Sequence record: NC_054910.1
DNA length: 64,000 nt
From: Escherichia phage EcNP1
Direction: 5' to 3' (one strand)
Of this stretch, positions 10,868 to 62,033 are shown one piece after another (the stretch's first letter is position 1; each line of letters begins with the position of its first letter). A program made the translations under genes and the position numbers. The notes beneath the pieces are model-generated. The model did not search any database, was not told the DNA's origin, and saw only the letters and a program-made list of their open reading frames with translations.

Positions 10868-10907
10868 GGTACAGGTATATAATATCATATCCTGTACCAA
10901 AGTAAAC
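10868..10907 (-). promoter_or_regulatory. T4-type early promoter with -10 inside an 8-bp inverted repeat
   Basis: Minus strand GTTTAC then GGTACAGG-(15 nt containing TATTAT)-CCTGTACC. Confidence 0.5.
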
Positions 10908-10909
10908 AA

Positions 10910-11242
10910 TTATTTTACTACTTTCCAGTGCTGCATGTCAAGTTTGCCAACTTTTTTCATCTTCTCAATTAAGCGTTCTGCACGTTGGCGAGCTGTAACA
11001 TAATACCATTCACCTAATTCATTTTGTTCAATTTTTCCAACGATTACTGTATTCAATTCATAAATCCAACCGGTAAAGAAATTATGAACTTGAATTGTAA
11101 AGGTGAAATCTGTTCCCATACCTTCTGTTGTTTCTACTTCAATAATATCACCTTCAACTGCCATTAAGAACCACATAGTTTCGTTATATTCACCATTGAA
11201 ACATTTAGCTTTAACCGCAGCGTTCAGATTAATCGTTTTCAT
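10910..11242 (-). CDS. hypothetical protein (110 aa)
   Basis: Track ORF. Confidence 0.5.
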   Translation of the reverse strand: MKTINLNAAVKAKCFNGEYNETMWFLMAVEGDIIEVETTEGMGTDFTFTIQVHNFFTGWIYELNTVIVGKIEQNELGEWYYVTARQRAERLIEKMKKVGKLDMQHWKVVK

Positions 11243-11269
11243 TTTATTCTCCTTTGTTTGTGTAAGATA

Positions 11270-11299
11270 ATATTATCACAAAGGAACCATACTGTAAAC
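11270..11299 (-). promoter_or_regulatory. T4-type early promoter
   Basis: Minus strand GTTTAC + ~18 nt + TAATAT-like -10. Confidence 0.45.
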
Positions 11300-11321
11300 A
11301 ACTTTGTGCAATCTTTGGAAA

Positions 11322-11347
11322 ATAAAAAAGGACTCCCGAAGGAGTCC
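11322..11347 (-). terminator. intrinsic terminator (UUCG tetraloop)
   Basis: GGACTCC-CGAA-GGAGTCC on plus; minus RNA has GGACUCC-UUCG-GGAGUCC followed by UUUUUU. Confidence 0.65.
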
Positions 11348-11352
11348 TCAAC

Positions 11353-11529
11353 TTATGCTTTCTGCTTACCAAAACGAGAAGCATCATCTCGAAGAACCGC
11401 ACGTGCTCGGCGCATGATCTTCTCAACAGTTTGATTGATACGAGAGTTCGACCCACGCTTGTAGCCAGCGCGTTTAGAATCACCAACTTTCTTTTCAACT
11501 GCTTTCTTTGCTTTAGCTTGTTTTGCCAT
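11353..11529 (-). CDS. small basic protein (58 aa; track ORF extended to 11571)
   Basis: ATG at 11527-11529 gives MAKQAKAKKAVEKK..., Lys/Arg rich. Confidence 0.45.
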   Translation of the reverse strand: MAKQAKAKKAVEKKVGDSKRAGYKRGSNSRINQTVEKIMRRARAVLRDDASRFGKQKA

Positions 11530-11649
11530 TATAAATTCTCTTTTAAATGAAAATGCAGGACTTATTGGCATTGCCTGCGCAAGCCCTCAAGGGGAACATA
11601 GGTTTTTGAATATTTAACGACCAGGATAACCATAAACCCGTCATCATAC

Positions 11650-11898
11650 TTACTTCAGTGTTACCACAAAGTGACGAACTGCTTTTCGTGCGGCAGAAGC
11701 CAAAGGCTTAGCATATTTAAGTTCATCTTTTTCCTGAAGCTCAGCAGCTAATGCAGTTTGAGCAGGATTCAGATGTTTGAAATAACGCAGGATTTCAAGA
11801 GCTTCGGCTTCAACATCAATAGATGCGCCATAGTTTTCGTGACCATTATTCCATGCGTTTCGTTGCAGTTCAAGAGCGTGTTGTAATTGTTTAATCAT
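11650..11898 (-). CDS. rIII: lysis-inhibition accessory protein RIII
   Basis: 82 aa (T4 RIII 82 aa); position between 30.x genes and gene 31. Confidence 0.7.
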   Translation of the reverse strand: MIKQLQHALELQRNAWNNGHENYGASIDVEAEALEILRYFKHLNPAQTALAAELQEKDELKYAKPLASAARKAVRHFVVTLK

Positions 11899-13899: not shown

Positions 13900-14132
13900 A
13901 GTACGCCATACACCCTTTGTGCTTCAACTAATCCATCAAAATCCAATTTGAGATGTGTTATTTGGTCACCATCGCCTGGATTCACAATTACTAATACTGA
14001 ACGAGGAGTTTCGGTAATAACACGAACCGACGTTTCAGGAAATCGTTCAGAAACCTTATTTACCAATTCTTGAGCAAATAGTTTAACTTTTTCTTGGAAT
14101 TCTTTAACAGTAATTGGTTTTTCACTTAGCAT
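13896..14132 (-). CDS. hypothetical protein (78 aa)
   Basis: Track ORF. Confidence 0.5.
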   Translation of the reverse strand: MLSEKPITVKEFQEKVKLFAQELVNKVSERFPETSVRVITETPRSVLVIVNPGDGDQITHLKLDFDGLVEAQRVYGVL

Positions 14133-14653
14133 GTTGATCCTAGCTCCTTACTTTCAACGTTTTTAACTAATTTGACAGAAACTAATTCAGCATCTTGAGT
14201 AATCATTACCGGACCTTCTTCATACTCTTCAAGATATTCTAGAGCTTTCTTTTTAGCTTCTTCCTTCGTATCAGTTTGAGCATAGATATAAAACATACAA
14301 CCAGTAATACCTACTACTTTCCACTTAATTTCTTTATCAGTTTTAATTTCAAATTTACTAACAGAATCATCTTTTTGAACTTCTTCGAAAAAAGAATATT
14401 CTAACATATAAGCAATTGAAAATAACGGACTAACTTTATAGGATTCACCCATTACATCAACAGCTTTATACCAACAATCATCAATTTCGCGTTTAATGCT
14501 AATAACATTTTTCGCAGGATCTATTTTTACTTTAAATGAATTTTCCCCAATAAACTGGGCAATTCGTTTATTAGCCCCGCAAGTTTCATTAAAAATATCT
14601 TTATATCCAGCTTTAAAGCGATAAACCTTATCTTCTTCAAACCATTCGCTCAT
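14126..14653 (-). CDS. hypothetical acidic protein (175 aa)
   Basis: Track ORF downstream of an early promoter. Confidence 0.5.
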   Translation of the reverse strand: MSEWFEEDKVYRFKAGYKDIFNETCGANKRIAQFIGENSFKVKIDPAKNVISIKREIDDCWYKAVDVMGESYKVSPLFSIAYMLEYSFFEEVQKDDSVSKFEIKTDKEIKWKVVGITGCMFYIYAQTDTKEEAKKKALEYLEEYEEGPVMITQDAELVSVKLVKNVESKELGSTC

Positions 14654-14675: not shown

Positions 14676-14714
14676 GGTAGAGCTATAATATCACAACTCT
14701 ACCGTAAAGTAAAC
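14676..14714 (-). promoter_or_regulatory. T4-type early promoter with -10 inside a 7-bp inverted repeat
   Basis: Minus strand GTTTAC then GGTAGAG-(TATTAT region)-CTCTACC. Confidence 0.5.
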
Positions 14715-17974: not shown

Positions 17975-17982
17975 CATAAAGT

Positions 17983-18035
17983 CCTCATGTTGTGTCAGTA
18001 AGTCTACTGTAACACAACATGAGGGACTTGTAAAC
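17983..18035 (-). repeat. copy B of dispersed ~60-bp element: 13-bp perfect inverted repeat plus GTTTAC box
   Basis: CCTCATGTTGTGT-(16 nt)-ACACAACATGAGG then GGACTTGTAAAC; near-identical to the element at 2285-2345. Confidence 0.7.
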
Positions 18036-19653: not shown

Positions 19654-20823
19654 TTAAAAATATTTTTTAAAACTCATCATAACTTTATCATCAACATCAT
19701 TATCAATCTGTGCAACAAGGTAAGATGACAGTTCTACTTCTTGCGGCGCGGATTGAACATTATCAGAATTAAGATATTCACGAATCCAAGGATACGGATG
19801 TTTAACCGGAGCATCGGTAATTGGGCATGGAAGACCGCACTGTTTCATACGAGATACAGTTAAGTAATCAATAAAGCTCCACATGCTATTTGTATTTAAT
19901 CCAGGAACATCGCCATCTTTAAATAAATGAACTGCCCAGTCTTTTTCTTGGCGGTTAACTTCCATGAAAATATCAACTGCTTCTTGTTCACACTCTTGAG
20001 CAATTTTAACCCATTCATCACCATCTGTGCCAAGTTGAAGTTGACGAATAATATATTGGGTGCCTTTAAGGTGTAGCTGTTCATCACGTGCAATGAACTT
20101 CATAATCTTAGCATTACCTTCCATGATTTCCATGTTTTTATGGAAGTTAAAGGTGCATGCGAAAGATACATAAAAACGAATAGCTTCCAAGGCGTTGATT
20201 ACATGCAAGCAGAGGTAAAGAGATTTCATTAATGCTCGTTTAGTACATTCAACAACTTTGCCTAACTCTTCTTTACGAAATCCTTCTGATAAAATTCCTT
20301 CATAATCTTCAACCGCATTCTGATATTCACGAGTCTTAACTAGAACATCATCATAATAGCGACCAATGGACTCGGCACGTTTCATAATAGCTTTATCTAA
20401 TACAATCTCATCAAATACCTTTGACGGATCAGTATAAAGATTTCGCATGATATGAGTATATGAACGGCTGTGAATAGTTTCACTAAAAGTCCATGTAGCA
20501 ACCCATGTATCAAGACTTGGGTCTGAAATTAATGACATAAGTACAGCAGACGGTGCACGACCCTGAATGCTATCCAAAAGTGATTGATACTTCAGATTAT
20601 TAGTAAAAATATCTTGCTGATACTGAGGAAGCTTGTTAAATTGTGCAGCATCCATCATCAAGTTTACTTCTTCAGGACGCCAGAAAAATGACAACTGCTT
20701 TTCGGTTAAATCTTCAAAAACTTTATGACGTTGAATATCGTAACGCGCAATACCAAGACCTGAACCGAAGAACATAGGTTCTTTTAAAACATCAACTGGA
20801 TTTGTATTAAAAACTGTGCTCAT
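19654..20823 (-). CDS. nrdB: ribonucleotide reductase small subunit (uninterrupted)
   Basis: 389 aa (T4 NrdB 388 aa); continuous ORF, no intron. Confidence 0.93.
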   Translation of the reverse strand: MSTVFNTNPVDVLKEPMFFGSGLGIARYDIQRHKVFEDLTEKQLSFFWRPEEVNLMMDAAQFNKLPQYQQDIFTNNLKYQSLLDSIQGRAPSAVLMSLISDPSLDTWVATWTFSETIHSRSYTHIMRNLYTDPSKVFDEIVLDKAIMKRAESIGRYYDDVLVKTREYQNAVEDYEGILSEGFRKEELGKVVECTKRALMKSLYLCLHVINALEAIRFYVSFACTFNFHKNMEIMEGNAKIMKFIARDEQLHLKGTQYIIRQLQLGTDGDEWVKIAQECEQEAVDIFMEVNRQEKDWAVHLFKDGDVPGLNTNSMWSFIDYLTVSRMKQCGLPCPITDAPVKHPYPWIREYLNSDNVQSAPQEVELSSYLVAQIDNDVDDKVMMSFKKYF

Positions 20824-23696: not shown

Positions 23697-24556
23697 TTAC
23701 ACCGCCATTTTTCCTTTAATAGGAGGGTGTGATTCGTAACCTTTAAGAACGAAATCTTTAGGCCTGAGTTTAAGAACATATTCCAATTGTTCTTTAGTAG
23801 AAAGATAGCGGAATTTATAAGGCAATCCGCCTATTACCAGTTCACAAAGCTCTTTAGGTTCACGACGCAAAATTTCTTTACATTGTTCTACGTGATTCAT
23901 ATAAATATGAGTATTACCGCCAGAAAATATCAAATCTCCTGGAATAAGATTACACATCTTAGCTACAATATGAACTAATGCAGCATATGATGCAATATTA
24001 AATGGAAGACCGAGGAAAACATCTACCGAACGTTGATACCACTGCAAATCCAAATAGCCATTACGCACATTAAACTGATAGAACATATGACAAGGCGGTA
24101 ATGCCATATATTTAAGTTCAGCTGGATTCCATGCAGAAACAATTTGACGCCTATCATTTGGTAGTTTTTTAATACGATCAACAACTTCTATAATTTGGTC
24201 TACACCGCCAAAATCACGCCATTGTTTTCCATAAATTGGACCAAGTTCACCACTATGATATCCTAAATCTTTTGCTTGATTTTCGTAATTTTCATCCCAG
24301 ACTGTTTTGCCTTGAATTAATGAATCATGTTGAATTAATCGCAAATCATTGACATTTATGCTTCCCGATAAAAACCAAAGGAGCTCAGCAATGCAAGCTT
24401 TCCAGGCGAGCTTCTTAGTTGTTACTGCAGGAAAACCTTTACTTAAATCCCAGCGCAATTTAGTACCAAACAAAGCAATTGTTCCTGTGCCTGTTCGGTC
24501 ATCGGTTTCGTAACCATTTTCCAGGATATCTTTAATTAAAAATTGGTATTGTTTCA

Positions 24557-24557
<1 letters not shown>
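23697..24557 (-). CDS. td: thymidylate synthase (intronless)
   Basis: 286 aa from ATG at 24557 (T4 Td 286 aa, MKQYQ...); catalytic region PPCH present; continuous reading frame. Confidence 0.95.
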
Positions 24558-25586
<1,029 letters not shown>

Positions 25587-25940: not shown

Positions 25941-26183
25941 TCAAACAGACTTTTTCACAATTTTCCAATCAGCTTTAAACTGATCGACGTCAGAATGATA
26001 AATCCAGAATCCTGCGCTTTCTCCATCCTCATAAAGAGGGCATCCATCACATTCATCTTCCCATCCCATATCACGTAAAAGATGTTCAGCTTTTTCAACG
26101 AGTTCAGAATCTTTACCGATGATATTAAAATACCATTTACCTCTAACTTCTGAATCTTTGATGCTCTGGCGTTGTAATCTCAT
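25941..26183 (-). CDS. hypothetical protein (about 80 aa; track ORF extends to 26282)
   Basis: ATG at 26181-26183 follows GAGGAG RBS and lies downstream of an early promoter. Confidence 0.45.
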   Translation of the reverse strand: MRLQRQSIKDSEVRGKWYFNIIGKDSELVEKAEHLLRDMGWEDECDGCPLYEDGESAGFWIYHSDVDQFKADWKIVKKSV

Positions 26184-26212
26184 TTTTATTCTCCTCAGTA
26201 ATTGATAGGGTA

Positions 26213-26242
26213 ATAGTATCACACTACTACCCAGAAGTAAAC
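26213..26242 (-). promoter_or_regulatory. T4-type early promoter
   Basis: Minus strand GTTTAC + 18 nt + TACTAT. Confidence 0.5.
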
Positions 26243-26901: not shown

Positions 26902-26984
26902 ATTATTTTCCTCTTTAATCGTCAGCAGTATTGCCGATAGTTGTATAGTACCATGGAAGAACAGGGATGTAAACTGTTTTGTGA

Positions 26985-27024
26985 AAAAATTTTTGAAATA
27001 AAAAAGGGGACCTCTAGGGTCCCC
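26985..27024 (-). terminator. gene 32 intrinsic terminator
   Basis: Minus RNA GGGGACC-CUAGA-GGUCCCC followed by UUUUUAUUU. Confidence 0.7.
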
Positions 27025-30216: not shown

Positions 30217-30278
30217 ATGAACCTCGTTCAATTAGTGAGATTTCTATTATATACCATCCGAATCTTAAAGTAAACAAG

Positions 30279-40813: not shown

Positions 40814-40825
40814 TAACTATACCAC

Positions 40826-42622: not shown

Positions 42623-42632
42623 TATTTATTCC

Positions 42633-43268
42633 TCACAGTTCAGATGCTACGGTGATTACAGCTTCAATGTTTTCTGCCGAGCGTTTAATGTCAAGATACA
42701 CATTACCATTTTTAGCGATTTTACATGACATTCCGATATCAGTAAATTTCTGAATATGATGTTCCATCATTTTGTATCCAAAAATTCGCATATTTCCATT
42801 GTTGTTAATTTCAAAATTACGAATTCCGTGAGTGCGTTTTTCTAAAATAGCAAGATAGTTACTACGATAAGTTTCAACCTTTTTAAGAACAAATCCATTT
42901 TCATCTAAAAGTTTTAGCATGAGGTCTTTATCTTCTTCCATATCGGAAGTAATCTCGCGAGCTTTACGAGTTGCTCGTTTTTTCAGCAGTTCCGGAGCAT
43001 TTTCCTGCGCGTATAAAGTTGCTGCATTTGAAATAATATCCTGAGCTTCACCAGTAATGATTAATCCATCACCAGATTTCTCCACCAGGCCTTTTTTAAT
43101 CAATACCCCAATATTACTATTAACTACTGCATTACCTAAATCTGGATGCACCTCACGAACTTCTGCAGCTGTAATGAAATCTTTCTTAGCAATGGTAATT
43201 AAAATCGCAGCAGTTTTTTCATTCAGAACATCGTTAGAAGCTTTGATGATGTAAGTTACTTTAGACAT
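42633..43268 (-). CDS. motA: middle-transcription activator MotA
   Basis: 211 aa (T4 MotA 211 aa); N-terminus MSKVTYIIKASNDVLNEKTAAILITIAKKDFITAAEV. Confidence 0.95.
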   Translation of the reverse strand: MSKVTYIIKASNDVLNEKTAAILITIAKKDFITAAEVREVHPDLGNAVVNSNIGVLIKKGLVEKSGDGLIITGEAQDIISNAATLYAQENAPELLKKRATRKAREITSDMEEDKDLMLKLLDENGFVLKKVETYRSNYLAILEKRTHGIRNFEINNNGNMRIFGYKMMEHHIQKFTDIGMSCKIAKNGNVYLDIKRSAENIEAVITVASEL

Positions 43269-43307
43269 TTTCTAATCTCCGTAATTCTGTATCAGTAGTT
43301 GATAGTT

Positions 43308-43339
43308 GTATAGTACCACAGTATGCTTTGGTTGTAAAC
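43308..43339 (-). promoter_or_regulatory. T4-type early promoter for motA
   Basis: Minus strand GTTTAC + ~18 nt + TACTAT, then conserved leader ACAACTATCAACTACTGATAC. Confidence 0.55.
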
Positions 43340-43357
43340 CGTTTTGTGAAAAAATTT

Positions 43358-43389
43358 TAAAATAAAAAAGGGAGAGCCGAGGCTCTCCC
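43358..43389 (-). terminator. intrinsic terminator
   Basis: GGGAGAGC-CGAG-GCTCTCCC 8-bp stem; minus RNA followed by UUUUUU. Confidence 0.65.
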
Positions 43390-43394
43390 TAAAA

Positions 43395-43544
43395 TTACTG
43401 CATGACTGTGATAACTGTCATGATAACACGTTGAATGCCGAACGCAAGAAGACCTCCTGCTACAGCTGGAACAACACCTAAACCCGCCAGTAAAATGCCA
43501 CCGGATACTAATGCAGCGCTTGTAATACCTATGAATGGACTCAT
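43395..43544 (-). CDS. small hydrophobic membrane peptide (49 aa, motA.1-like position)
   Basis: Not in track; ATG overlaps gene 52 stop; MSPFIGITSAALVSGGILLAGLGVVPAVAGGLLAFGIQRVIMTVITVMQ. Confidence 0.4.
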   Translation of the reverse strand: MSPFIGITSAALVSGGILLAGLGVVPAVAGGLLAFGIQRVIMTVITVMQ

Positions 43545-44869
43545 TTGATTTCCTCTAAATCTTTGGTGTATTCTGTAACTACATCAGTAGTTTTCCAATA
43601 TTCGTTTTCTTCTTTCTTAGCTTTAGCTTCTTCAGCAAGTTTCTTTGCTTCGTCGGAAGTCATATGAAAAATATTCATTCCGACTAGTTTATCAACATAA
43701 GAAGAATACATATCAATTTTAGAAAGTTCTTCGGTCAGTTCTTTGCGAGTTTTACCTTGTACAACAATTTCACCTGAAATTACTTTCTTAATGAAATGTG
43801 CCTTGGCAAAGGCTAAACGAAATGCTGATTCAGTTTCTTTGATTTTGTTATCAATTCGTTTTTGGACATAAGTTTTACGAACTTCAACGAAGTCTTTGAT
43901 TAAATCAACTACGTTATCGTAAACTTGTAGCTTTCCTTTCTCGTTGATGACTGTAATATTTTGGGAACGACGCTCAATCAACCCGAAGTCTTTCATGATT
44001 TTTGCATGGCGTTCTTCTTCGTTATCACTCAAAGAGTATTCTTTGCGGAATTTAACTTTAAAGCCAAAACCATGCTCACCACAAGCATCATCCCATGTAA
44101 TGAAGCCTTTATCTTCAAGCGGGTCTAAGATTTTACTCACATAAGTTTCACGATCATACTTATACGGAATCTCAGTGATATTCATTTGAGTTCGTGAAGT
44201 AAACTTGTACGTTCCACGAATTTCATATTGGCCATCAATTTCAACGACTTCACCACGAAATTCTGGAAATTCTACCTTCGGTTTAGTTACTTTCTTTCCT
44301 TGAAGAGCTTGTAGTACAGCTTTCTTGACAGAAGAAACACTATGAGGAAGAATGTAAGTTGCATAACCAGTTGCAATACCGGAAACACCATTAAGAAGAA
44401 CAGTAGGAATAATAGGCAAATAGAAAGCAGGAGGAATGTGTTCTTTATCTTGATGTACCGGAGCATATTCAGTATCTTTATATACGTTATAGAAATTTTT
44501 ACTTACACGAGCAAAAATATAACGACTCGCCGCTGCTTTTTGAACGGTACGAGAACCAAAGTTTCCTTGACCATCTAACAAAGGAAAGTTATTATTCCAA
44601 GTGTTAGCCATCAAAGCCCCCGCATCTTGTGCAGAGTTTTCACCATGATGATATCCAAGGTCAGCTACACCACCTGCAATAGAAGCAAGTTTGTGAAACT
44701 TATCTTTATTTCCTCGCGCCAAATCAAGAGCTCGAGCAATAACAAATCGTTGAACTGGCTTAAATCCATCAATCATATTTGGAATAGCACGATTTTCAAC
44801 CGTGTACATAGCATAAGCCAGTGCTTCATTATCAATGATACTTTTTAAATCGCGATTATTCAGTTGCAT
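43541..44869 (-). CDS. 52: DNA topoisomerase II medium subunit gp52
   Basis: 442 aa (T4 gp52 442 aa); GyrA-like N-terminus with PNMIDGFKPVQRFV. Confidence 0.95.
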   Translation of the reverse strand: MQLNNRDLKSIIDNEALAYAMYTVENRAIPNMIDGFKPVQRFVIARALDLARGNKDKFHKLASIAGGVADLGYHHGENSAQDAGALMANTWNNNFPLLDGQGNFGSRTVQKAAASRYIFARVSKNFYNVYKDTEYAPVHQDKEHIPPAFYLPIIPTVLLNGVSGIATGYATYILPHSVSSVKKAVLQALQGKKVTKPKVEFPEFRGEVVEIDGQYEIRGTYKFTSRTQMNITEIPYKYDRETYVSKILDPLEDKGFITWDDACGEHGFGFKVKFRKEYSLSDNEEERHAKIMKDFGLIERRSQNITVINEKGKLQVYDNVVDLIKDFVEVRKTYVQKRIDNKIKETESAFRLAFAKAHFIKKVISGEIVVQGKTRKELTEELSKIDMYSSYVDKLVGMNIFHMTSDEAKKLAEEAKAKKEENEYWKTTDVVTEYTKDLEEIK

Positions 44870-44873
44870 AAAT

Positions 44874-45014
44874 TTACCATACTAGTGAATGTAGTGCCAT
44901 AATAACATCAGAAATGAAAAGCACGACTTGAATTAATCCGAACATTACTCCATAATATAGCGCTACCAATAAAGTAGCAAGGGCTAATGAATAGCCCAAG
45001 ATTTTCTTAATCAT
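44874..45014 (-). CDS. small membrane peptide (46 aa, 52.1-like)
   Basis: Not in track; hydrophobic MIKKILGYSLALATLLVALYYGVMFGLIQVVLFISDVIMALHSLVW. Confidence 0.4.
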   Translation of the reverse strand: MIKKILGYSLALATLLVALYYGVMFGLIQVVLFISDVIMALHSLVW

Positions 45015-45165
45015 TGGTAGATAACAACACAAATGTTAAATATGCACACATACCCTGGGCTAAAGCTTGTGAAAACACACTGCTAGCATCGATACAGATA
45101 GTTAAAACACATGCTACTATCCAACAAATAAATGAAATAACTCCTAATAATTTTGCGATATTCAT
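45007..45165 (-). CDS. ac: small membrane peptide (52 aa), candidate Ac (acridine sensitivity)
   Basis: Not in track; hydrophobic; position between 52 and stp as in T4 (Ac 51 aa). Confidence 0.4.
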   Translation of the reverse strand: MNIAKLLGVISFICWIVACVLTICIDASSVFSQALAQGMCAYLTFVLLSTND

Positions 45166-45172
45166 ATTTTCC

Positions 45173-45253
45173 TCACTGGCGTCCGAAGACGCCTTTAGTT
45201 TTAAGATTGTTACGATAGAACTGCATTACATGTTCGTTATGGAAATTACTCAT
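45173..45253 (-). CDS. stp: Stp peptide (26 aa), activator of the host PrrC anticodon nuclease
   Basis: Not in track; translation [26 protein letters not shown] matches T4 Stp as I recall it; ATG overlaps ndd stop. Confidence 0.75.
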
Positions 45254-45708
45254 TAATATGCCTGCAAAACAAATTTAAAGTTATCAGCCAACATACGATT
45301 CATTTCTTCAAGCGTTTGATACTCAGAATGATGATTACGAGTAAACGCTAAAGCTAACTGACCTTTTCCAAATCCCGTCGTCAGAGGTTTCATCTTAGAA
45401 GCAGGTAGATAAAATACCGTGTATGGAACATTGTTATTTGCAATAGTACGCGCAAGCTGAGATCGACGCTGGCGAATATGACTTAGAACTGCACTGAATC
45501 CTTGCTTAGAACGCTGATTACCTACATAAAATCGCGCAGATACACACGGACTATCAAATGGACCACCAAATTTGCTTACTAAAAAGTAAAATCCAGGGTT
45601 AGACAAAATGTCTTTATGTGGAGTTCCAAAAACCCATTCACCGCCTTTGATTGTACCAATAACAGTTGCGCCTGCATTATTCAAATCAGTAACAGTCATA
45701 TATTTCAT
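45253..45708 (-). CDS. ndd: nucleoid disruption protein Ndd
   Basis: 151 aa (T4 Ndd 151 aa); position between denB-side ORFs and stp. Confidence 0.75.
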
Positions 45709-45767
45709 GTTATTTTCCTCTAATTATTTTCTACTCCAAGGCCGCATGAATACACACGGCCGATAAA

Positions 45768-45983
45768 TTAATCGTCGCAGTCGACGCTCAATTCCCAGAA
45801 CTCTTCTACAGTATAAGTTTTAGTATCATTTTCAATACAGAAACGTTCATTACTGTTATTTGCTAAAGTAGCGTTAACTGTCATTTTCTCGCTAGTGCTT
45901 TTAAGAGGTGAAATACGAATTAACTGATCACCATTATCTAAACAGAAAATTTCACCGACCTTTACATCTTTAAAAATTTTCAT
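45768..45983 (-). CDS. hypothetical protein (71 aa)
   Basis: Track ORF. Confidence 0.45.
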   Translation of the reverse strand: MKIFKDVKVGEIFCLDNGDQLIRISPLKSTSEKMTVNATLANNSNERFCIENDTKTYTVEEFWELSVDCDD

Positions 45984-46098
45984 AATTCACCTCAAGGAGT
46001 ATAAAATCCAAACGCAGTTGTTGACCATCCCATCCAGTATGGGAAATTTGCACCAATGTAAAACATAAGAATATAAAACCAAATGCTTAGTAAATTCA

Positions 46099-46317
46099 TT
46101 ATTTTACACCATTCCAAATTGTTTCAACCACAGATTTTAAGCCATTTTGATGAATGTCCATTCCGACAACCGTCATCAAATAGATTCCAACCACAACTGA
46201 ACCCAAGGCGAAAATCAGCCAGAAAATGAATAAAGCTGGAAAAATATTATCGAAAAACCATTCAATAAATGTAAAAGCACTACGTTTACGCTTCATATTT
46301 TCCTCACATAAATCCAA
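46099..46317 (-). CDS. hypothetical membrane protein (72 aa)
   Basis: Track ORF; two hydrophobic helices. Confidence 0.45.
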   Translation of the reverse strand: MDLCEENMKRKRSAFTFIEWFFDNIFPALFIFWLIFALGSVVVGIYLMTVVGMDIHQNGLKSVVETIWNGVK

Positions 46318-46445
46318 AGTAAGCGTTTAATACATCAATCATTAAAACGATTGGGAATATACTCAAAACTACTAGTATTATAACTACATTCCATATAGCT
46401 TTAACAATCTTTTTCATTTTCTGTTCCTCCGTAGTTGATAGAGTA

Positions 46446-46475
46446 ATAATACCACAGAGGAACAGTCTTGTAAAC
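46446..46475 (-). promoter_or_regulatory. T4-type early promoter
   Basis: Minus strand GTTTAC + 18 nt + TATTAT. Confidence 0.5.
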
Positions 46476-46664
46476 AACTTTTTTTTTTAAAAATATTCGT
46501 AATAAATGTGAATACCAATCACCACTGCCGAAACTTGCGCAACCCACCACGCACAAGCAATAAGTACAGAATTCAAAATTTTCATAATAACCTCATCACA
46601 AAAGTAAATGTTAAACAAATTAATGGAATACTAATTAACCAAACGAAACACCACCATAATGAAC

Positions 46665-46937
46665 TCATAGTTCAATCTCAGCGATTTTCATTTCATTACT
46701 ATTAATAGCCGCTTTAAGACTATCTGAAAGAATTACATTCCAGTGGTCATTCATATGACCATTAACTAAGCGTGTAATTTCTTCGGGAGTTGAAAAATAA
46801 GGCGTATCAGACTCCCAGTGCGATAGTCCCAAGCGAGTATAAATCATACCTTCATCATCGATAGAATATTCAACTGACACAAACTCATCAGTTATTTTAT
46901 GTTTAGCGTAATAAAATTTAAATTTCATTTTACTCAA
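46665..46937 (-). CDS. hypothetical protein (90 aa)
   Basis: Track ORF. Confidence 0.5.
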   Translation of the reverse strand: MSKMKFKFYYAKHKITDEFVSVEYSIDDEGMIYTRLGLSHWESDTPYFSTPEEITRLVNGHMNDHWNVILSDSLKAAINSNEMKIAEIEL

Positions 46938-47140
46938 TAATCCGCTAAAAGATCGACAATTGCATCACGAAGACACTTATTCGCAATACGTTTAAGAGCA
47001 ATTTCAGTTTCTGGAGCATTTTGAATAATCATTGAATTCAATTCAGCCTCAGCAAACTGAAGTTCTTTAACTAATTCAGCTTTATATTTTCCTTGCCCTT
47101 TCTTAGCTTTTGCTCGTTTTAATTCAGCTGTAGTAAACAT
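46934..47140 (-). CDS. hypothetical protein (68 aa; track ORF extends to 47239)
   Basis: ATG at 47138-47140 lies downstream of the early promoter at 47175-47204. Confidence 0.45.
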   Translation of the reverse strand: MFTTAELKRAKAKKGQGKYKAELVKELQFAEAELNSMIIQNAPETEIALKRIANKCLRDAIVDLLADY

Positions 47141-47174
47141 TTTATTCTCCAAATCCGTATCAGTTGATAGTTGT

Positions 47175-47204
47175 ATAGTACCACAGTCCTTGTGGTATGT
47201 AAAC
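47175..47204 (-). promoter_or_regulatory. T4-type early promoter
   Basis: Minus strand GTTTAC + 18 nt + TACTAT with ACCACA/TGTGGT inverted repeat in the spacer. Confidence 0.5.
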
Positions 47205-47220
47205 TGTTTTGTGAAAATTT

Positions 47221-47778
47221 TTAAATGGAAAGATACCATCCGCTGTAGTTGCTTTTTCTTACAACCTTACGAAGGTCTTCTCTATCACCGATGAACTTCG
47301 GAGTGTACTGGATGACACCTGGATGAATTTCTTTAGTGTTGAATATAATTATACAGTCAGCGACTTGATGATTTAGAATGGGCCCTAGATTTATTCCAGA
47401 ACCGTATGGATACTCTCCGCTGCATCCGGTTGTTACCGAAATCCAACGTGAGTCAGTTTGATGTGTTTTGACTTCTACACGAAGCCCGCAGTATTTTGGA
47501 TGCGCCAGTACATCCCACGCATATGTATACGGGTCATTAACATCCTCTTGGCCTTTGTTAACATACCCGCTTAGCCAATCTGCTACAAAAAACTCTGCGT
47601 ACACCGCGATACGGCATCTTTCGATAACTTCTGCTTTATCCTGATTTGGATTTTGTTTTAAAGAGTATCTTGCTGTATCAGCAATTTTGACCTTCATTTC
47701 ACTAGTCAAGTCACTGTTCGATAGGGTAAATGTCGGAATCTGAAATAGTCTCTGTAAACCCGGATTCGTTTTCTGCAT
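47221..47778 (-). CDS. denB: endonuclease IV (DenB), by size and position
   Basis: 185 aa (T4 DenB 185 aa); between ndd cluster and rIIB. Confidence 0.7.
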   Translation of the reverse strand: MQKTNPGLQRLFQIPTFTLSNSDLTSEMKVKIADTARYSLKQNPNQDKAEVIERCRIAVYAEFFVADWLSGYVNKGQEDVNDPYTYAWDVLAHPKYCGLRVEVKTHQTDSRWISVTTGCSGEYPYGSGINLGPILNHQVADCIIIFNTKEIHPGVIQYTPKFIGDREDLRKVVRKSNYSGWYLSI

Positions 47779-48031
47779 TTAGACTTTCCTTTTTACCGCT
47801 GAGATAAGCGTTATATACTTTAAGAGTACCATAATAAATTCTGTCATTTTCATCTAAAGACTCACGGTCGAGTTCCTTTTTATCCATGACTATAACATCA
47901 TTACAGTAAAGAAACCCAAGTTTTTCGTGACCAAACTCAAATTTATTGCAGTACACAATATTAGCGTGATGATTTCCGTGTAGATTAATCTCTTTTATGT
48001 CGGAATCACCGATATTCATACAATAAATCAT
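47711..48031 (-). CDS. hypothetical protein (106 aa)
   Basis: Track ORF; 68-nt overlap with denB start suggests one of the two starts is misplaced. Confidence 0.4.
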   Translation of the reverse strand: MIYCMNIGDSDIKEINLHGNHHANIVYCNKFEFGHEKLGFLYCNDVIVMDKKELDRESLDENDRIYYGTLKVYNAYLSGKKESLNAENESGFTETISDSDIYPIEQ

Positions 48032-48039: not shown

Positions 48040-48064
48040 TTAAAACAAAAGGGCCGAAGCCCTT
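48040..48064 (-). terminator. UUCG-tetraloop hairpin terminator
   Basis: GGGC-CGAA-GCCC on plus; minus RNA followed by UUUUGUUUU. Confidence 0.55.
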
Positions 48065-51657: not shown

Positions 51658-51687
51658 ATTATACCACATCCTTGTGGTAAAGTAAAC
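51658..51687 (-). promoter_or_regulatory. T4-type early promoter for the rIIA operon
   Basis: Minus strand GTTTAC (overlapping gene 39 stop) + 18 nt + TATAAT with TGG extended -10; CCACA/TGTGG inverted repeat in spacer. Confidence 0.6.
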
Positions 51688-53507
51688 TATTGGCTCATCC
51701 ATTCTTTACGAAGGTCAGCATTATCTCCCATGAGCATTTCAAAAAGCTCTTTCCAGTTCTCAGGAAGTTTAACAACATCATATACTGGGTTTTGAATCAT
51801 CTCACGATATTCAGATTTTTCCAAAGAGCCAAGTCCCTTAATATAACGGATGCTATGTTTAGGTAGAGCATCTTTAGCACTCTCATATTCAGCGACTGTA
51901 TAAAACCATTCTTGTTTTTTACCGACCTGAGCGATGATTACAGGAGTTTTGACAAAGCGAATTCTTCCTTGTTCAAACAGTTCTGGCCAATTACTAAAAA
52001 ATCCGAGCAGAGAAGGATAAATGCTTCCTAGACCATCATGGTCAGCATCAGTCATAATAGCAATATTATGATAATTCAAGTTTTCGGCTTTTTCACCAAG
52101 AACTAATCCAGTGATTGCGCAAATATCAAACAGCTCTTTGTTTTTAAGCATATCAGCATATGACATACCCCAGCTGTTAAGAACTTTACCACGCAATGGA
52201 TAACCGCCATGAAGTTCTTTATCACGAACATCAATAAGATATCCGATAGCAGAATCACCCTCAGTCAAGAAAAGAGTAGTGTCAGCATCTTTACCACAAA
52301 GATTCGCTTTAATATGTTTATGAACCTTAGCTTTAGAGGCCTTTTTAGCTGCTTTAGTTTCTGCTGCTTTTTCTGCCGCCAATTTACGAGCCAAGGCAGC
52401 TTCAATGATTGGCATTAAAATTGCTTCATTATTTAAAATAGCACGTGAAATCTTTTTAGCATCAAGCTGAATATGACTACGAATTTCACCAAATGGAGAA
52501 GTCAAACGCTCTTTAGTTTGAGAATCAAATCGCATGTTTTTCATATCACGAACAAACATAACGATAGTCAAACATTCTTTAACACGTGCTTTAGTTACAT
52601 CAATTTTGAATTTACGTTTGATTTGTGGAATAAGGTCTTCACAAATATCATCCATAACACAATCAATATGATGGCCACCATTCTTGGTATGAATGTTATT
52701 GACGTATGTTAATTGACGAAAACCATCCGGTGAACGACCGACCGCAATAGAACAATTTTCTTGTTCTTGAACGATAGCATGTTCATCATATTGGCGTGCA
52801 TATTTCTTAAAATTACCCTGAACCTTTTTACCATTAAAGGTAAATTGAATATCAGGATAAACTACTGCAAGTGTCTGGAGACGATCCAGTGTAATGTCAA
52901 GATAAACTTGAGATAGCTCATTAGTTTCAAATGACATAAAATCAGGAATAAAAGTAACGCGAGTTCCTTTCCATTTTCCAGGAATATCTTCCCATGATTT
53001 ATTTTCCATGCCATTCGAGCAGCGAACTACAATATTATTTTGACCGTCGCCAGTTTCACCGACAAACATCACAGAAAAAATGTTAGTTAAACTAGAACCA
53101 ACACCGTTCATACCGCCAGTGACGCGTTCTTTATCATCACCAAAGTTACCACCTGCTTTTGGAATAGTCCATGCAGCAACAGGACCAGGAATTTCTTCAC
53201 CGGTAGGTGTTTTAACCATCGCCTGTGGAATACCACGACCGTTATCTTCAACTGTTACTTGATTGTTTTTGATAGTAACATTAATTTTATTTGCGAATTT
53301 AAACTTAGTACGAATACCTTCATCTACTGAGTTATCAATAATTTCATCAATAAGCTTAACAAGACCAGGTACATACTGAACACTTTCCCATTTACCAAAC
53401 AGAAAGCGCTCATGCATTTCATTAGCAGAAGAGCCAATATACATGCCGCTACGCTTTTTGATATGTTCAATATCGCTCAGAATTTTAATTTCATTCTTAA
53501 TCATCAC
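51687..53507 (-). CDS. 39: DNA topoisomerase II large subunit, unsplit (T4 gp39 + gp60 equivalent)
   Basis: 606 aa single ORF; GyrB-type ATPase motif VEDNGRGIP; no internal stop, bypass gap or inserted gene. Confidence 0.92.
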   Translation of the reverse strand: MMIKNEIKILSDIEHIKKRSGMYIGSSANEMHERFLFGKWESVQYVPGLVKLIDEIIDNSVDEGIRTKFKFANKINVTIKNNQVTVEDNGRGIPQAMVKTPTGEEIPGPVAAWTIPKAGGNFGDDKERVTGGMNGVGSSLTNIFSVMFVGETGDGQNNIVVRCSNGMENKSWEDIPGKWKGTRVTFIPDFMSFETNELSQVYLDITLDRLQTLAVVYPDIQFTFNGKKVQGNFKKYARQYDEHAIVQEQENCSIAVGRSPDGFRQLTYVNNIHTKNGGHHIDCVMDDICEDLIPQIKRKFKIDVTKARVKECLTIVMFVRDMKNMRFDSQTKERLTSPFGEIRSHIQLDAKKISRAILNNEAILMPIIEAALARKLAAEKAAETKAAKKASKAKVHKHIKANLCGKDADTTLFLTEGDSAIGYLIDVRDKELHGGYPLRGKVLNSWGMSYADMLKNKELFDICAITGLVLGEKAENLNYHNIAIMTDADHDGLGSIYPSLLGFFSNWPELFEQGRIRFVKTPVIIAQVGKKQEWFYTVAEYESAKDALPKHSIRYIKGLGSLEKSEYREMIQNPVYDVVKLPENWKELFEMLMGDNADLRKEWMSQ

Positions 53508-55040: not shown

Positions 55041-55322
55041 TTAATTGAACAGTGGAGCGATGCGTTTCAGAAGAGTAGCAGCACCTTTGGCAAATTTTAC
55101 ATCATGAAAAACAGTTTCTTCTTCCGTTACAACACGAACTTTAATGTTTTCACAATCCCAATTTTTGCGAACAATCTTCAAAAGCTGCAGTAAATCTTTA
55201 CATTCAGCAATATCGATAACACACCCACGAGAATCTTCCATTATCGCACGATAACCGTAAGCCATACCATAATCGTTGAAAGATTGCTCGATGATAATTA
55301 AGTTTTCCATTTTATTCTCCAA
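55041..55322 (-). CDS. hypothetical protein (93 aa)
   Basis: Track ORF. Confidence 0.5.
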   Translation of the reverse strand: MENKMENLIIIEQSFNDYGMAYGYRAIMEDSRGCVIDIAECKDLLQLLKIVRKNWDCENIKVRVVTEEETVFHDVKFAKGAATLLKRIAPLFN

Positions 55323-55407
55323 GTTGTTTTCTGTATCAGTAGTTGATATTGATATAGTACCATAATCAACTACTGATGTATATAGTTTTATGAAAAAATT
55401 TTAAACT

Positions 55408-55896: not shown

Positions 55897-55940
55897 AGTT
55901 ATCTCTCACTTGTTAAAAAGATTTTATACTCCACGGGACC

Positions 55941-55970
55941 ATTATACTCTGGTCCCAAGAGTTTGTAAAC
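55941..55970 (-). promoter_or_regulatory. T4-type early promoter
   Basis: Minus strand GTTTAC + 18 nt + TATAAT flanked by GGGACC/GGTCCC inverted repeat. Confidence 0.55.
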
Positions 55971-57015: not shown

Positions 57016-57042
57016 TTTATTATCCTCAGTAGCTATGGTGTT

Positions 57043-57072
57043 ATAATACCACAACTAACCGAGGAAGTAAAC
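57043..57072 (-). promoter_or_regulatory. T4-type early promoter
   Basis: Minus strand GTTTAC + 18 nt + TATTAT. Confidence 0.5.
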
Positions 57073-59583: not shown

Positions 59584-59891
59584 CGTAAATTCCCTGCAAT
59601 TGGTATACTAACAATACGCCCAGTATCTAAAATTCGTCGATATAATCTTTGTGTGTCTACATCAGGCTTAACATGTTTAACTTCTATTTTATTAAACCAA
59701 AACTTGCGTGGAGTCTCGACTAATCTCGGAATTCCCATACCTAAAGCTAGTCGATACTGATCTTTAAGAGTTGTAAATACTTTATCAGCAATCTCCCTTT
59801 CAAAAAATACAGCAGGACGATGTTCATCAAGAGGAACAGGCACCGCAAATCCATCTTTATCTCTATACACTATCGCATATACATAAAACAT
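59580..59891 (-). CDS. hypothetical protein (103 aa, dda.1-like)
   Basis: Track ORF; 4-nt overlap with dda start. Confidence 0.5.
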   Translation of the reverse strand: MFYVYAIVYRDKDGFAVPVPLDEHRPAVFFEREIADKVFTTLKDQYRLALGMGIPRLVETPRKFWFNKIEVKHVKPDVDTQRLYRRILDTGRIVSIPIAGNLR

Positions 59892-59892
59892 A

Positions 59893-60639
59893 TTATCCTC
59901 GGATAAGTTTAAAAATTGAACAATTTAGCGGGTATCCTCTTTTCAGTTTAAGTTTATCAATAAAAGACAAATTTTGATACCGCTCTACACCTTGAATAAT
60001 TTTATCACACATATCATATTGCATTTCTGCTTCTGACAATTTTTTCACAGTTTTCCAATCCGAGCCTTTAAGAAGAACGTTTAGTTTAACAACTTCAGCG
60101 CCTTCTGCTATACGAGAACCATCAATACGAGCTTTAAGTGCTATAATCGTTAGCTTAACGTCAGAAGTTTGTTTTGATTTAGAAAGCTGAGAAATATGCT
60201 CAATTCGGTTTTCACGTTTTTTCTGTATAGCTTTAATTTGATTATAAGTCTTTTTGATTTTAGCCCATTTCTTTTCATCTAAATTTAGTTTATGAACTTT
60301 TTTCGCAGATGAACGACCAATTCGCAAAGCAAATAAATCACGCTTTTCAATCAACTCTTCTAAAGTATAATCAGAACGAAATGTATTATACTTTTTCTTT
60401 ACTGCAATAACATTCCCTTTAATGTATCCAACGTTATTATCAAAACGTTCTAACGATAATTTCTCTCCTTCAATACGATTATCAAAAGGTTCTCCTGAGT
60501 AAGCGCAAACTTTCTGATCTAAAATGTTCTTAATGTAATTGAAGTCTAAGTTAAAATCTTTAGAACGTCTTTTAGCTGATGCCTGAGTGTGCTCTAAACG
60601 ACGTGTAATTTTACGAATTTGATTTTTAGACAGTTTCAT
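59893..60639 (-). CDS. srd: Srd-like protein, by size and position
   Basis: 248 aa basic protein between dda.1 and modA as in T4. Confidence 0.45.
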   Translation of the reverse strand: MKLSKNQIRKITRRLEHTQASAKRRSKDFNLDFNYIKNILDQKVCAYSGEPFDNRIEGEKLSLERFDNNVGYIKGNVIAVKKKYNTFRSDYTLEELIEKRDLFALRIGRSSAKKVHKLNLDEKKWAKIKKTYNQIKAIQKKRENRIEHISQLSKSKQTSDVKLTIIALKARIDGSRIAEGAEVVKLNVLLKGSDWKTVKKLSEAEMQYDMCDKIIQGVERYQNLSFIDKLKLKRGYPLNCSIFKLIRG

Positions 60640-60668
60640 ATTTTTCTCACGGACGGGTAACTACTTAT

Positions 60669-60698
60669 ACTATAACATTTTTACTTCAGCTTGTAAAC
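60669..60698 (-). promoter_or_regulatory. T4-type early promoter
   Basis: Minus strand GTTTAC + 18 nt + TATAGT. Confidence 0.45.
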
Positions 60699-60754
60699 AA
60701 CTTTATGAAAAATGCTTTAAAACTTTCATGGTATAATGAATCTAAGTCCTTCCA

Positions 60755-61357
60755 TTATAGATTAAATCCTTCAAAATCAAGAGTATAGATAGTGTATGTT
60801 GAATACTTTTTATACTCATATCTATCTGCAATTCTAAATACACTTCCAGCTGGTATCATTACTTCTTGTTCATCTGAAACTAATTCCATATTACGATAGC
60901 GATGGCTATCTGGAAATTTAAAACTCGGACTATATTCTTTACAACGTAAAGCTTTTATAGCATACTCCTGGAAATTAAATACCATAGGAGCTTTGAATTC
61001 AAAAATAACTTGCGTGTTGTATTCTAATCCAGAAGCAAAATGCAGAGCTATATTTTTATCATATGAAGCTGATACTACTTTATCAAATGTAATAATATCA
61101 ATTCCTTGATTTAATACCTGCTTAGTCTCAACTGGAACACCTCTCCAAAGAGGTTTATCGTTTGGAACCAAACGAGATTTGATTATTTCATTTAACCAAG
61201 AATGATCGTCTGGCTTATTAGTAATACAATGAATTAAAAGTTCAATTTCAGATAAATTAAATCCTTCAGAAAGTAATTCTTCACGAATAGAAGCACGCAC
61301 CGATGCATCCATTGATTTGATTTTAAAATCTTTTAATTGCATTGCTGAATATTTCAT
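60755..61357 (-). CDS. modA: ModA-like ADP-ribosyltransferase
   Basis: 200 aa (T4 ModA 200 aa); ART-like elements LWRG, SASYD, QEVMIPAG. Confidence 0.65.
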   Translation of the reverse strand: MKYSAMQLKDFKIKSMDASVRASIREELLSEGFNLSEIELLIHCITNKPDDHSWLNEIIKSRLVPNDKPLWRGVPVETKQVLNQGIDIITFDKVVSASYDKNIALHFASGLEYNTQVIFEFKAPMVFNFQEYAIKALRCKEYSPSFKFPDSHRYRNMELVSDEQEVMIPAGSVFRIADRYEYKKYSTYTIYTLDFEGFNL

Positions 61358-61989
61358 TCAACTACCTCAATATCATACACTTTAAATGTTCCAAATGAAT
61401 CGTGTAATTTTTCTTTTGAAATAGAAGTTATTTTATACTTTCCAATTGGAATCATCCATTCTTGTTCACGTACAATCATCATTAAGTTATCAGTACGTTC
61501 TGAATCTAATCCATCAGTATCTTCATATGTATACTTAAACTCAGTATTAGGAGAAGAAAGTATAATATCGCTGATATGGTCAGAGTAATTAAAAGCTTTA
61601 TCAGTTTTTAAGCGAAATATTATTTCAGTGGAATATTCAACATAAGAAAAACCGCATGCTGTGTGCAAACTAGTAGTAAATGAATCTACTCTGTTCGTTG
61701 AAAACACTTCTCCAACTTGTAAATCTTTAATGAGTTCTTTTGTCGATTTTGATATACCACGATATAACTGATAAGGTGATTCAGTTAAATGCTTTTTAAC
61801 GATTTTATTCAACTGCCGATGAAGAGCTTCATTCTTTTTGGCTTCCATACATTGCCAAAGAACTGACTGTTCAAAGTCAGTAAATTTTTCACAGACCTTT
61901 TTATACATATCATATTGAAAATCAACACTTTCAGCTTTTATAGATAACTGTTCAACATCTGCAAGATTAATAATCATGATAGCCTCCAT
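61354..61989 (-). CDS. modB: ModB-like ADP-ribosyltransferase
   Basis: 211 aa (T4 ModB 207 aa); LYRG, FST, QEWMIPIG; tandem with modA. Confidence 0.65.
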   Translation of the reverse strand: MEAIMIINLADVEQLSIKAESVDFQYDMYKKVCEKFTDFEQSVLWQCMEAKKNEALHRQLNKIVKKHLTESPYQLYRGISKSTKELIKDLQVGEVFSTNRVDSFTTSLHTACGFSYVEYSTEIIFRLKTDKAFNYSDHISDIILSSPNTEFKYTYEDTDGLDSERTDNLMMIVREQEWMIPIGKYKITSISKEKLHDSFGTFKVYDIEVVE

Positions 61990-62003
61990 ATACTTCAGAA
62001 GCT

Positions 62004-62033
62004 ATCATATCATTGTTAGGAAGGAAAGTAAAC
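62004..62033 (-). promoter_or_regulatory. T4-type early promoter for modB-modA
   Basis: Minus strand GTTTAC + 18 nt + TATGAT. Confidence 0.45.

Follow-up and report, generated by a model that had tools for sequence, protein, structure and literature searches.

The 64,000-nucleotide (nt) stretch analysed here, referred to as the window, comes from Escherichia phage EcNP1 (sequence record NC_054910.1). Judged by its sequence, it is Tequatrovirus DNA. Positions 40000-48000 are 99.8% identical to Escherichia phage vB_EcoM_Nami (8 kb compared) and ~96% identical to many other Tequatroviruses. The gene order of T4 is kept, from gene 48/54 and alt through rIIB and then from rIIA to mrh. Early and middle genes lie on the minus strand; the tail-fibre genes 34-38 and t are found in a block on the plus strand at 30.3-40.5 kb. 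The elements described here are the putative early promoters of the minus-strand genes, 18 with a GTTTAC -35 and one degenerate copy, and the inverted repeats in which ten of these 19 are embedded (Table 1).

The motif GTTTAC-N16-20-TAYWAT has 13 matches in the window, all on the minus strand, and shuffled sequences are expected to give 0.48 +/- 0.67. A looser -10, TANNNT, raises the count to 18 distinct elements on the minus strand (one appears in two registers) plus a lone plus-strand match inside gene 34; 4.35 are expected. A position weight matrix built from the sites has a consensus with conserved A-rich positions. Scanning with it, as the original prediction had proposed, adds a degenerate copy at 55354-55383 with the -35 ATATAC and brings the total to 19. 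That prediction had listed 14 minus-strand sites. Every one of them is present, but three GTTTAC sites had been overlooked, those of alc (18006-18035), frd.3 (26945-26974) and rnh (30246-30275). Two of the listed positions, 10868 and 14676, are the outer ends of 3' dyad arms, and the sites themselves are real. A generic sigma-70 scan of the window for TTGACA/TATAAT shows no enrichment (72 matches vs 74 expected; 76 vs 79), and the signal is therefore specific to the T4-type motif. As a promoter finder the generic scan was rejected, since it cannot single out these promoters. The -35 GTTTAC(W) and the TAnnnT -10 are 17-18 nt apart, and the extended -10 TGn is present in 16 of the 18 elements. 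A+T content in the 25 nt preceding the -35 is 60-88%, at or above the window mean of 64% in 16/18. A Shine-Dalgarno sequence (SD) and an ATG follow 25-44 nt downstream of the element, on the same strand as the early genes.

Compared element by element with the intergenic sites of T4, 17 of the 19 have an orthologue. The orthologous T4 sites lie upstream of alt.-3, 30.7, 30.8, alc, frd.1, frd.3, rnh, asiA, motA, ndd.4, rIIA.1, motB, motB.2, srd and modB, and in the T4 record AF158101 the counterpart of the 14714 site carries the name 'early promoter Pe133295'. Because of this orthology, the identity of the 18 GTTTAC elements and the degenerate copy as early promoters of a T4-like phage is essentially certain at the sequence level, and the earlier assignment of GTTTAC to the T4 early type holds. 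The GTTTAC consensus with its UP and TGn features is textbook T4 biology (PMC2988021, PMC1524935). In -35, spacing, TGn, -10, A/T-rich upstream region and positions, the elements match the T4 early promoters described as 'über' UP/-35/TGn/-10 sigma-70 promoters (Hinton 2010, PMC2988021; Nolan 2006, PMC1524935), and nothing essential differs. The differences from T4 are at the level of gene cassettes. The genes behind promoters 14714 and 47204 are not those of T4, and gene content directly behind 14714, 26242, 47204 and 55383 differs, with junctions at the leader/SD. The promoters would be of a very strong host sigma-70 type (UP, -35 GTTTAC, TGn, -10), predicted to fire immediately after infection and to drive the minus-strand early genes.

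Table 1. Early promoters of the window and nearby intrinsic terminators. Promoters are named in the text by their -35-end coordinate (57072 is the promoter at 57043-57072). ORF, open reading frame; aa, amino acids; z, fold score against shuffled sequence.
Feature	Position (strand)	Downstream start or gene	Hairpin and remarks
alt.-3 promoter	2314-2343 (-)	ATG 2282	hairpin 2288-2335, z -5.36; T4 orthologue at 123093
30.7 promoter	10879-10907 (-)	ATG 10841	z -4.76
30.8 promoter	11270-11299 (-)	ATG 11242	z -1.07, not significant
Intrinsic terminator hairpin with T-run	11328-11349 (-)		just upstream of 30.8 promoter
T4 Pe133295 orthologue	14685-14714 (-)	175-aa ORF	hairpin 14676-14703, z -4.05
alc promoter	18006-18035 (-)	ATG 17977	hairpin 17979-18029, z -6.75
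frd.1 promoter	26213-26242 (-)	ATG 26183	moderate hairpin 26191-26237, core GGGTA/TACCC, z -2.46
frd.3 promoter	26945-26974 (-)	ATG 26901	no significant hairpin, z -0.26
Intrinsic terminator	approx. 26998-27024		about 25-50 nt upstream of frd.3 promoter
rnh promoter	30246-30275 (-)	ATG 30216	no hairpin, z +1.0
asiA promoter	40845-40874 (-)	ATG 40813	no hairpin, z 0.0
motA promoter (43310-43339) and leader (43289-43309)	43289-43339 (-)		no hairpin, z +0.3
Intrinsic terminator	43369-43390 (-)		just upstream of motA promoter
Promoter of ndd.4-like ORF	46446-46475 (-)	ATG 46417; 37-aa ORF	hairpin 46421-46465, z -5.98
Promoter of 68-aa ORF	47175-47204 (-)	68-aa ORF	only spacer-internal ACCACA/TGTGGT stem, z -0.83
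rIIA.1 promoter	51658-51687 (-)		only spacer-internal ACCACA/TGTGGT stem, z -0.63
Degenerate copy, -35 ATATAC, -10 TACTAT	55335-55383 (-)	~89-aa ORF	z -4.24
motB promoter (55941-55970)	55928-55970 (-)		hairpin 55928-55962, core GGGACC/GGTCCC around -10, z -3.57
motB.2 promoter (57043-57072)	57023-57072 (-)		17-bp hairpin 57023-57065, z -5.68
srd promoter	60669-60698 (-)		no hairpin, z +1.2
modB promoter (62004-62033)	61975-62033 (-)		hairpin 61975-62009, z -2.98 (1/200 shuffles)

For 18 elements the region from the -35 to the AUG was folded as RNA and scored against 200 shuffles. Eight of them (57072, 55970, 46475, 18035, 14714, 10907, 2343 and 55383) form a hairpin with z of -3.6 or below, and the hairpins of 62033 and 26242 are moderate. 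None of the 200 shuffles folds as well as the dyads of 10907, 14714 and 55970. No difference from the shuffles is seen for 11299, 51687, 47204, 43339, 40874, 30275, 26974 and 60698. The dyads that the original prediction had noted at these promoters are thus not due to chance for three of its four examples, GGTACAGG/CCTGTACC (z -4.8), GGTAGAG/CTCTACC (-4.1) and GGGACC/GGTCCC (-3.6). The fourth, CCACA/TGTGG, is present at 51687 and 47204 but folds no better than shuffles, and these stems are treated as a by-product of the TGTGG extended -10. Strong dyads beyond those examples occur at 57072, 46475, 18035, 2343 and 55383 (z -4.2 to -6.8). A downstream leader said to be shared by several sites, ACAACTATCAACTACTGATAC, is exact only at 43289-43309. 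Copies with three mismatches (55333-55353) and with a 3-nt deletion (at the 47204 site) exist, as do several partial ones, so that 'several' was somewhat generous.

In 10 of the 19 elements the hairpin includes the spacer and/or the -10, the same order of promoter, stem-loop and SD/ATG as in the early-promoter stem-loops (PeSLs) of other T4-like phages. These ten promoters sit in an inverted repeat with its 5' arm in the -35/-10 spacer, a segment not read by RNA polymerase. The 5' arm is always found there, and for modB in the -10 itself. Two arrangements are seen. In the first, the 3' arm holds the SD, in 57072, 46475, 18035, 2343 and 62033 and more weakly in 11299 and 26242. The genes behind these arms are alt.-3, alc, the ndd.4-like ORF, motB.2 and modB, and in the weak cases 30.8 and frd.1. 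The 3' arm of 2343 includes the SD GAGG, that of 46475 is ACGGAGGAACAG, and that of 57072 is AGCUACUGAGG. The T4 orthologue of 57072 starts at 8218 and may be the promoter called P8.1 in the literature. The alc hairpin 18035 has 13 perfect pairs (CCTCATGTTGTGT/ACACAACATGAGG). In 62033 the -10 hexamer and start region UAUGAUAGCUUCU pair with the SD and AUG in GGAGGCUAUCAUG, so the AUG of modB is also covered. The pairing in 11299 is between spacer TCCTTTGT and SD-containing ACAAAGGA (duplex -11.3 kcal). The second arrangement is that of 10907, 14714, 55970 and 55383; here the stem encloses just the -10 and start site, and the SD is free. The arms of 10907 lie at 10891-10898 and 10868-10875, and a variant of this hairpin in contig L007 keeps its pairing via G.U. 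The spacer of 55383, ATCAGTAGTTGAT, is complementary to the conserved leader ATCAACTACTGAT at all 13 nt.

The repeats might have no function: chance alone, or pyrimidine-rich spacers meeting purine-rich SD regions together with promoter duplication, could produce them. Many spacers do carry CCTC/CTCC, so that foreign spacers also pair with the SD, and 2343 and 18035 are paralogous copies. Fold z scores reaching -6.8 argue against this, as does the specificity of pairing for the cognate partner. Cognate spacer:leader duplexes average -11.8 kcal vs -7.5 kcal for non-cognate ones (permutation p<5e-5). Compensatory substitutions moreover persist in relatives at 46-62% protein identity, and we consider the absence of any function improbable in the extreme.

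Several observations concern the DNA at individual loci. At 14714, AF158101 positions 133300-133313, orthologous to window 14685-14698, are noted as the 'inverted complement of previously reported sequence', and the 14-nt inversion 'corrects the early promoter Pe133295'. The corrected 14 nt coincide exactly with the loop TTGTGATATTATAG that the 7-bp arms GGTAGAG/CTCTACC enclose. The discrepancy is either a sequencing artefact caused by the hairpin or a real inversion of the loop, which would destroy the -10. The 175-aa ORF directly behind this promoter and leader (14126-14653, minus strand) has no Pfam match. T4 has cd.2 at this position, and the sequences part at the SD/ATG, the pattern that shuffling of gene cassettes would leave. 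At 26183-26242 the window joins the promoter straight to frd.1. T4 (146083-146143) and contig L007 have a 22-codon ORF (MFAPYIMAAVMLVCLYLLIKAC) between the leader of this promoter and frd.1. At 55041-55383 (minus strand), the ~89-aa ORF behind promoter 55383 also has no Pfam match; T4 (about 6485-6665) retains promoter and leader, but just an 11-codon ORF remnant.

Hairpins of this kind recur in T4 and in relatives, sampled as about 25 distinct contigs. In T4, spacer:leader duplexes reach -10 kcal or better at 18 of the 37 GTTTAC promoters that could be scored (those with SD and ATG downstream), among them regB, denV, ipI, ipII, ipIII and nrdC.8; at ipI, ipII and ipIII the hairpins bracket the -10. 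In divergent contigs, whose Alc or MotB is 37-62% identical to that of the window, the cognate duplex attains at least -14 kcal at 18 of 44 distinct promoters, as against 3.2% of non-cognate pairs (p<2e-4). In an alignment of ten distinct motB promoter sequences, all 70 cells of the 7-bp stem that surrounds the -10 are paired. Five of its seven pairs have changed on both sides, with arm variants GGGACC/GGTCCC, GGGAGC/GCTCCC, GGGGTC/GACCCC and GAGAGCC/GGCTCTC. The covariation score is 0.80 vs 0.38 +/- 0.06 in shuffles, and slid registers are 34-51% paired. The arms of the frd.1 hairpin 26242 covary in relatives as GGGTTAT/ATAACCC, GGGCTAT/ATAGCCT and GGTCTAT/ATAGACC. At alc the arms are wholly different in four lineages, and the SD is covered in all. 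Arms in other lineages are CTCCGTTTAGTT/AACCAAACGGAG, CTCCATTTGGTT/AACCAAATGGAG, CCTCGTTTGTT/AACAAACGAGG and CCTCATTTCGTT/AACGAAATGAGG. A single consensus structure for all alc promoters was rejected because the hairpin register of the T4 group and that of the others are 3 nt apart. The non-T4 lineages were analysed separately; in five sequences from them pairing extends to 96.9% of cells, with compensatory changes in four pairs. At motB.2, the arms in the L023/L030-L036 lineage are instead TTCTCCTCATG/CATGAGGAGAA. Where T4 and the window differ in the arms of the 46475 and 18035 hairpins, every change is from G.U to G-C or A-U, or the reverse; the three in 46475 all keep pairing through G.U. 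Read from these alignments, it is structure, not sequence, that is conserved in these hairpins.

Hairpin type also varies by lineage at the 30.7 promoter. The hairpin of the T4 group (window 10868-10907) brackets only the -10, and in contig L010 (position 17032) the spacer CTCCGTTGTAT pairs with the SD-including ATACAACGGAG. In contigs L043, L044 and L051, a partial alc duplicate is preceded by a GTGTAC-type promoter whose -35 is overlapped by a GGGG-TGTACAA-GCCCC hairpin resembling the Gn-loop-Cn PeSLs of RB49. In these contigs alc has no promoter directly upstream and instead stands behind a 79-aa fragment similar to the N-terminus of Alc.

The repeats could act in DNA or in RNA. The original prediction had suggested a site for a DNA-binding regulator, and on such a reading the dyads would be operators for a dimeric protein, for example in early-promoter shut-off, or cruciforms that expose the -10. 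The dyads do overlap the core promoter, and according to a review (PMC3014915) the shut-off mechanism of early promoters is not fully understood. However, the arms (GGTACAGG, GGTAGAG, GGGACC, CCTCATGTTGTGT, CTGTTCCTC) share no half-site and differ in centre and loop size. Their register is not constant from one lineage to the next, and the arms covary rather than staying conserved. The two strands are also not equivalent. Many pairs are G.U, which would be A.C on the other strand, including 10 of the 70 motB cells. For 32 strong hairpins the mean minimum free energy is -19.6 kcal for the sense strand and -16.2 kcal for the antisense strand, as compared with -6.8 and -6.6 kcal in mononucleotide shuffles, a sense excess of -3.1 kcal (p=8e-5). 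Finally, the absence of dyads behind upstream terminators, described below, has no rationale at the DNA level. A DNA-level element is thus very improbable, and we are fairly confident that the sense RNA is the target of selection.

The position of the 5' arm indicates which RNA this would be. Transcription from a sigma-70 promoter is expected to start ~7 nt past the -10. The 5' arm lies upstream of that point, so the transcript of the promoter itself cannot form the hairpin, which is therefore expected only in RNA from an upstream promoter. This speaks against the second proposal of the original prediction, RNA structure at the 5' ends of the early transcripts. The inverted repeat would instead act as a hairpin in sense RNA solely when transcription reads through from upstream. 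Terminators are distributed accordingly among 94 distinct promoters of the window, T4 and the relatives. An intrinsic terminator within 75 nt upstream is found for none of 37 promoters with a strong dyad and for 18 of 57 without one (Fisher p=7e-5). The promoters shielded by terminators in the window are those of 30.8, frd.3 and motA. A selected sense-RNA hairpin on read-through transcripts is, in our judgement, highly probable.

In read-through RNA, the SD-covering hairpins would mask translation of the downstream gene, or make it depend on coupling to the upstream gene, while the short RNA from the gene's own promoter would be open. The predicted probability that the SD is unpaired in the long RNA is 0.00-0.06 for 62033, 57072, 46475, 18035, 11299 and 2343. 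In own-promoter RNA, with assumed start sites, it is 0.45-0.77 in five cases and 0.01 for 2343; overall, predicted accessibility is 0.23 for the long RNA vs 0.54 for own-promoter RNA. When context length is equalised, a masked SD (unpaired probability <0.1) is predicted for 41% of genes with their own early promoter vs 12% of other window genes, and the corresponding T4 figures are 42% and 10%. The SD alone is the informative measure; unpaired probability averaged over the whole translation initiation region, from SD to AUG, does not separate dyad from non-dyad promoters and was set aside. Stems that bracket the -10 (30.7, the cd.2 position, motB and 55383) would be candidates for pausing or attenuation, or for protection of RNA ends. 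We estimate a probability of roughly 60% for the chain as a whole, that is, early promoters embedded in hairpins that form on read-through RNA and mask the SD. On these predicted folds, the odds that SD masking is itself the selected function are about even.

Several points weigh against this interpretation. Start sites are assumed about 7 nt after the -10, and the analysis consists of sequence and predicted folds. Orthologous promoters are not independent, which inflates the p-values for duplexes (<2e-4), strand (8e-5) and terminators (7e-5). In a larger set, G:T outnumber A:C mismatches in gapless stems by just 11 to 5 (p=0.105), and in T4 alone by 9:1. This count was dropped as support for RNA-level action, and the sense/antisense energies and the motB alignment are used in its place. 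Masking cannot be the full explanation, since four strong hairpins miss the SD. With long stems roughly centred on the -10 and short leaders, SD coverage could simply follow from geometry. Exchanging foreign spacers did not raise mean predicted SD accessibility (0.28 vs 0.29, p=0.56), because many spacers carry anti-SD-like CCTC/CTCC, and the swap is unusable as support for masking. Finally, the sole experiment on such a stem-loop, PeSL211/210 of RB49, was read by its authors as transcription termination (PMC2839356).

That experiment belongs to the PeSL literature, which offers a different reading (Arbiol 2010; Comeau 2014). Here the stem-loops attenuate or terminate transcription arriving from upstream, SD overlap is incidental, and the ~100-bp cassette of promoter, stem-loop and SD also provides the homology by which recombination shuffles small genes. 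In RB49/phi1, PeSLs were interpreted as terminators or attenuators and recombination sites (Arbiol et al. 2010, PMC2839356) and extended to PST/T4 (Comeau et al. 2014, PMC4122927). In most cases the RB49/phi1 stem-loops occupy the -35/-10 spacer or overlap the -10, and a single one of them was seen to cut downstream lacZ expression as strongly as rrnB T1 (PMC2839356). The PST/T4 promoter consensus TTTACW-N17-TAYWAT is the present motif (PMC4122927). The mutual exclusivity of dyad and terminator fits a 'terminator substitute' equally well, and promoters 14714, 26242, 47204 and 55383 stand exactly at gene-content differences from T4. On the other hand, the embedded hairpins have no U-tract and none is called terminator-like, whereas two true upstream terminators were called. 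The PST/T4 legend places the stem-loops upstream of the promoter, not within it (PMC4122927), and homology for recombination leaves the compensatory changes and the sense-strand bias unexplained. We consider this reading unlikely, though far from negligible, and it is compatible with SD masking rather than exclusive of it.

The elements of the window share with PeSLs the early promoter, the stem-loop in the spacer or -10, the SD/ATG on the 3' side and small variable genes nearby, and also the association with gene insertion, deletion or replacement (14714, 26242, 47204 and 55383 compared with T4). They differ in that the RB49/phi1 PeSLs have Gn-loop-Cn stems and a near-perfect TTGACA -35, and here the stems are mixed or AT-rich and the -35 is GTTTAC, the type that the PeSL authors call T-even 'analogs', not homologs. 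As related in PMC2839356, the T-even 'IP-associated elements' of Repoila et al. 1994 are weaker, AT-richer stem-loops of variable size on T4 early promoters at internal-protein loci. The published role of PeSLs is that of terminator or attenuator and recombination site, in contrast to the lack of U-tracts and the RNA-type covariation seen here. The SD is inside the stem in 6-7 cases here, which the PeSL papers do not discuss; neither 'translation' nor 'ribosome' occurs in the text of PMC2839356.

Translational coupling could account for the SD-covering hairpins in another way. A ribosome that terminates 0-10 nt ahead of the -35 would open the 5' arm, and on polycistronic RNA translation of the downstream gene would then depend on that of the upstream gene instead of being shut off altogether. 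Stop codons do stand in front of the -35 or overlap it at 2343 (TAG overlapping), 55970, 14714, 10907 and 18035, and by sequence geometry the 5' arms begin 8-20 nt past those stops. The distance is longer for 46475 and 57072, however, and the -10-bracketing hairpins leave the SD uninvolved. We regard coupling as an unlikely explanation, more so than the PeSL reading.

SD masking with an internal promoter has a precedent in T4. In the long transcripts of e, soc, 49 and I-TevI the SD and/or AUG is base-paired with an upstream strand, and an internal promoter yields a translatable short RNA that lacks the 5' strand (PMC3014915). The elements of the window are alike in that the SD and/or AUG is paired, here by prediction, in the long transcript and the promoter lies inside the 5'-strand region. 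They differ in that the internal promoter of e, soc, 49 and I-TevI is late (TATAAATA) and delays expression, whereas the promoters here are of the early sigma-70 type and would confine translation to the first minutes, on own-promoter RNA. The promoter set and its associated stem-loops (PeSL or PeSL-like) are already known. In full-text literature searches, whose coverage excludes the older T4 literature, no paper on SD masking by early-promoter spacers was found. What is added here is a sharper, testable reading of the stem-loops as selected sense-RNA structures, often SD-covering, present only where upstream transcription is unterminated.

Elsewhere in the window, nrdB (19654-20823) and td (23697-24569), both on the minus strand, read as seemingly uninterrupted ORFs, and the T4 group I introns with I-TevIII and I-TevI, as well as mobE, seem to be absent. 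A single 606-aa ORF at 51687-53507 (minus strand) has GyrB, HATPase and Toprim domains and is an unsplit topoisomerase II large subunit, the counterpart of T4 gp39 and gp60. The phage therefore lacks the mobA insertion and the 50-nt translational bypass of gene 60. GC-rich hairpins with T-runs on both strands at 1966-1987 and 48049-48064 look like bidirectional terminators and mark the boundaries gene 54/alt.-3 and denB.1/denB, respectively. No Rfam family matched anywhere in the window.

For the T4-like phages as a group, we suggest tentatively that ~40% of early promoters carry, in a spacer that is otherwise free of constraint, the 5' strand of a conserved sense-RNA hairpin, which would mask the downstream ribosome-binding site on read-through RNA wherever no terminator shields it, a form of genome-wide translational insulation. 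If this is true, alc, motB.2, modB, ndd.4 and, in T4, regB would be 'own-promoter-only' genes. It could also help to explain why early-protein synthesis collapses at early-promoter shut-off despite possible continued transcription from upstream. For phage engineering, if confirmed, cargo placed behind these promoters or deletion of a spacer could alter translation of neighbouring genes. The 'promoter inside a hairpin' mechanism of e, soc and 49 would then extend from a few late genes to many early ones.

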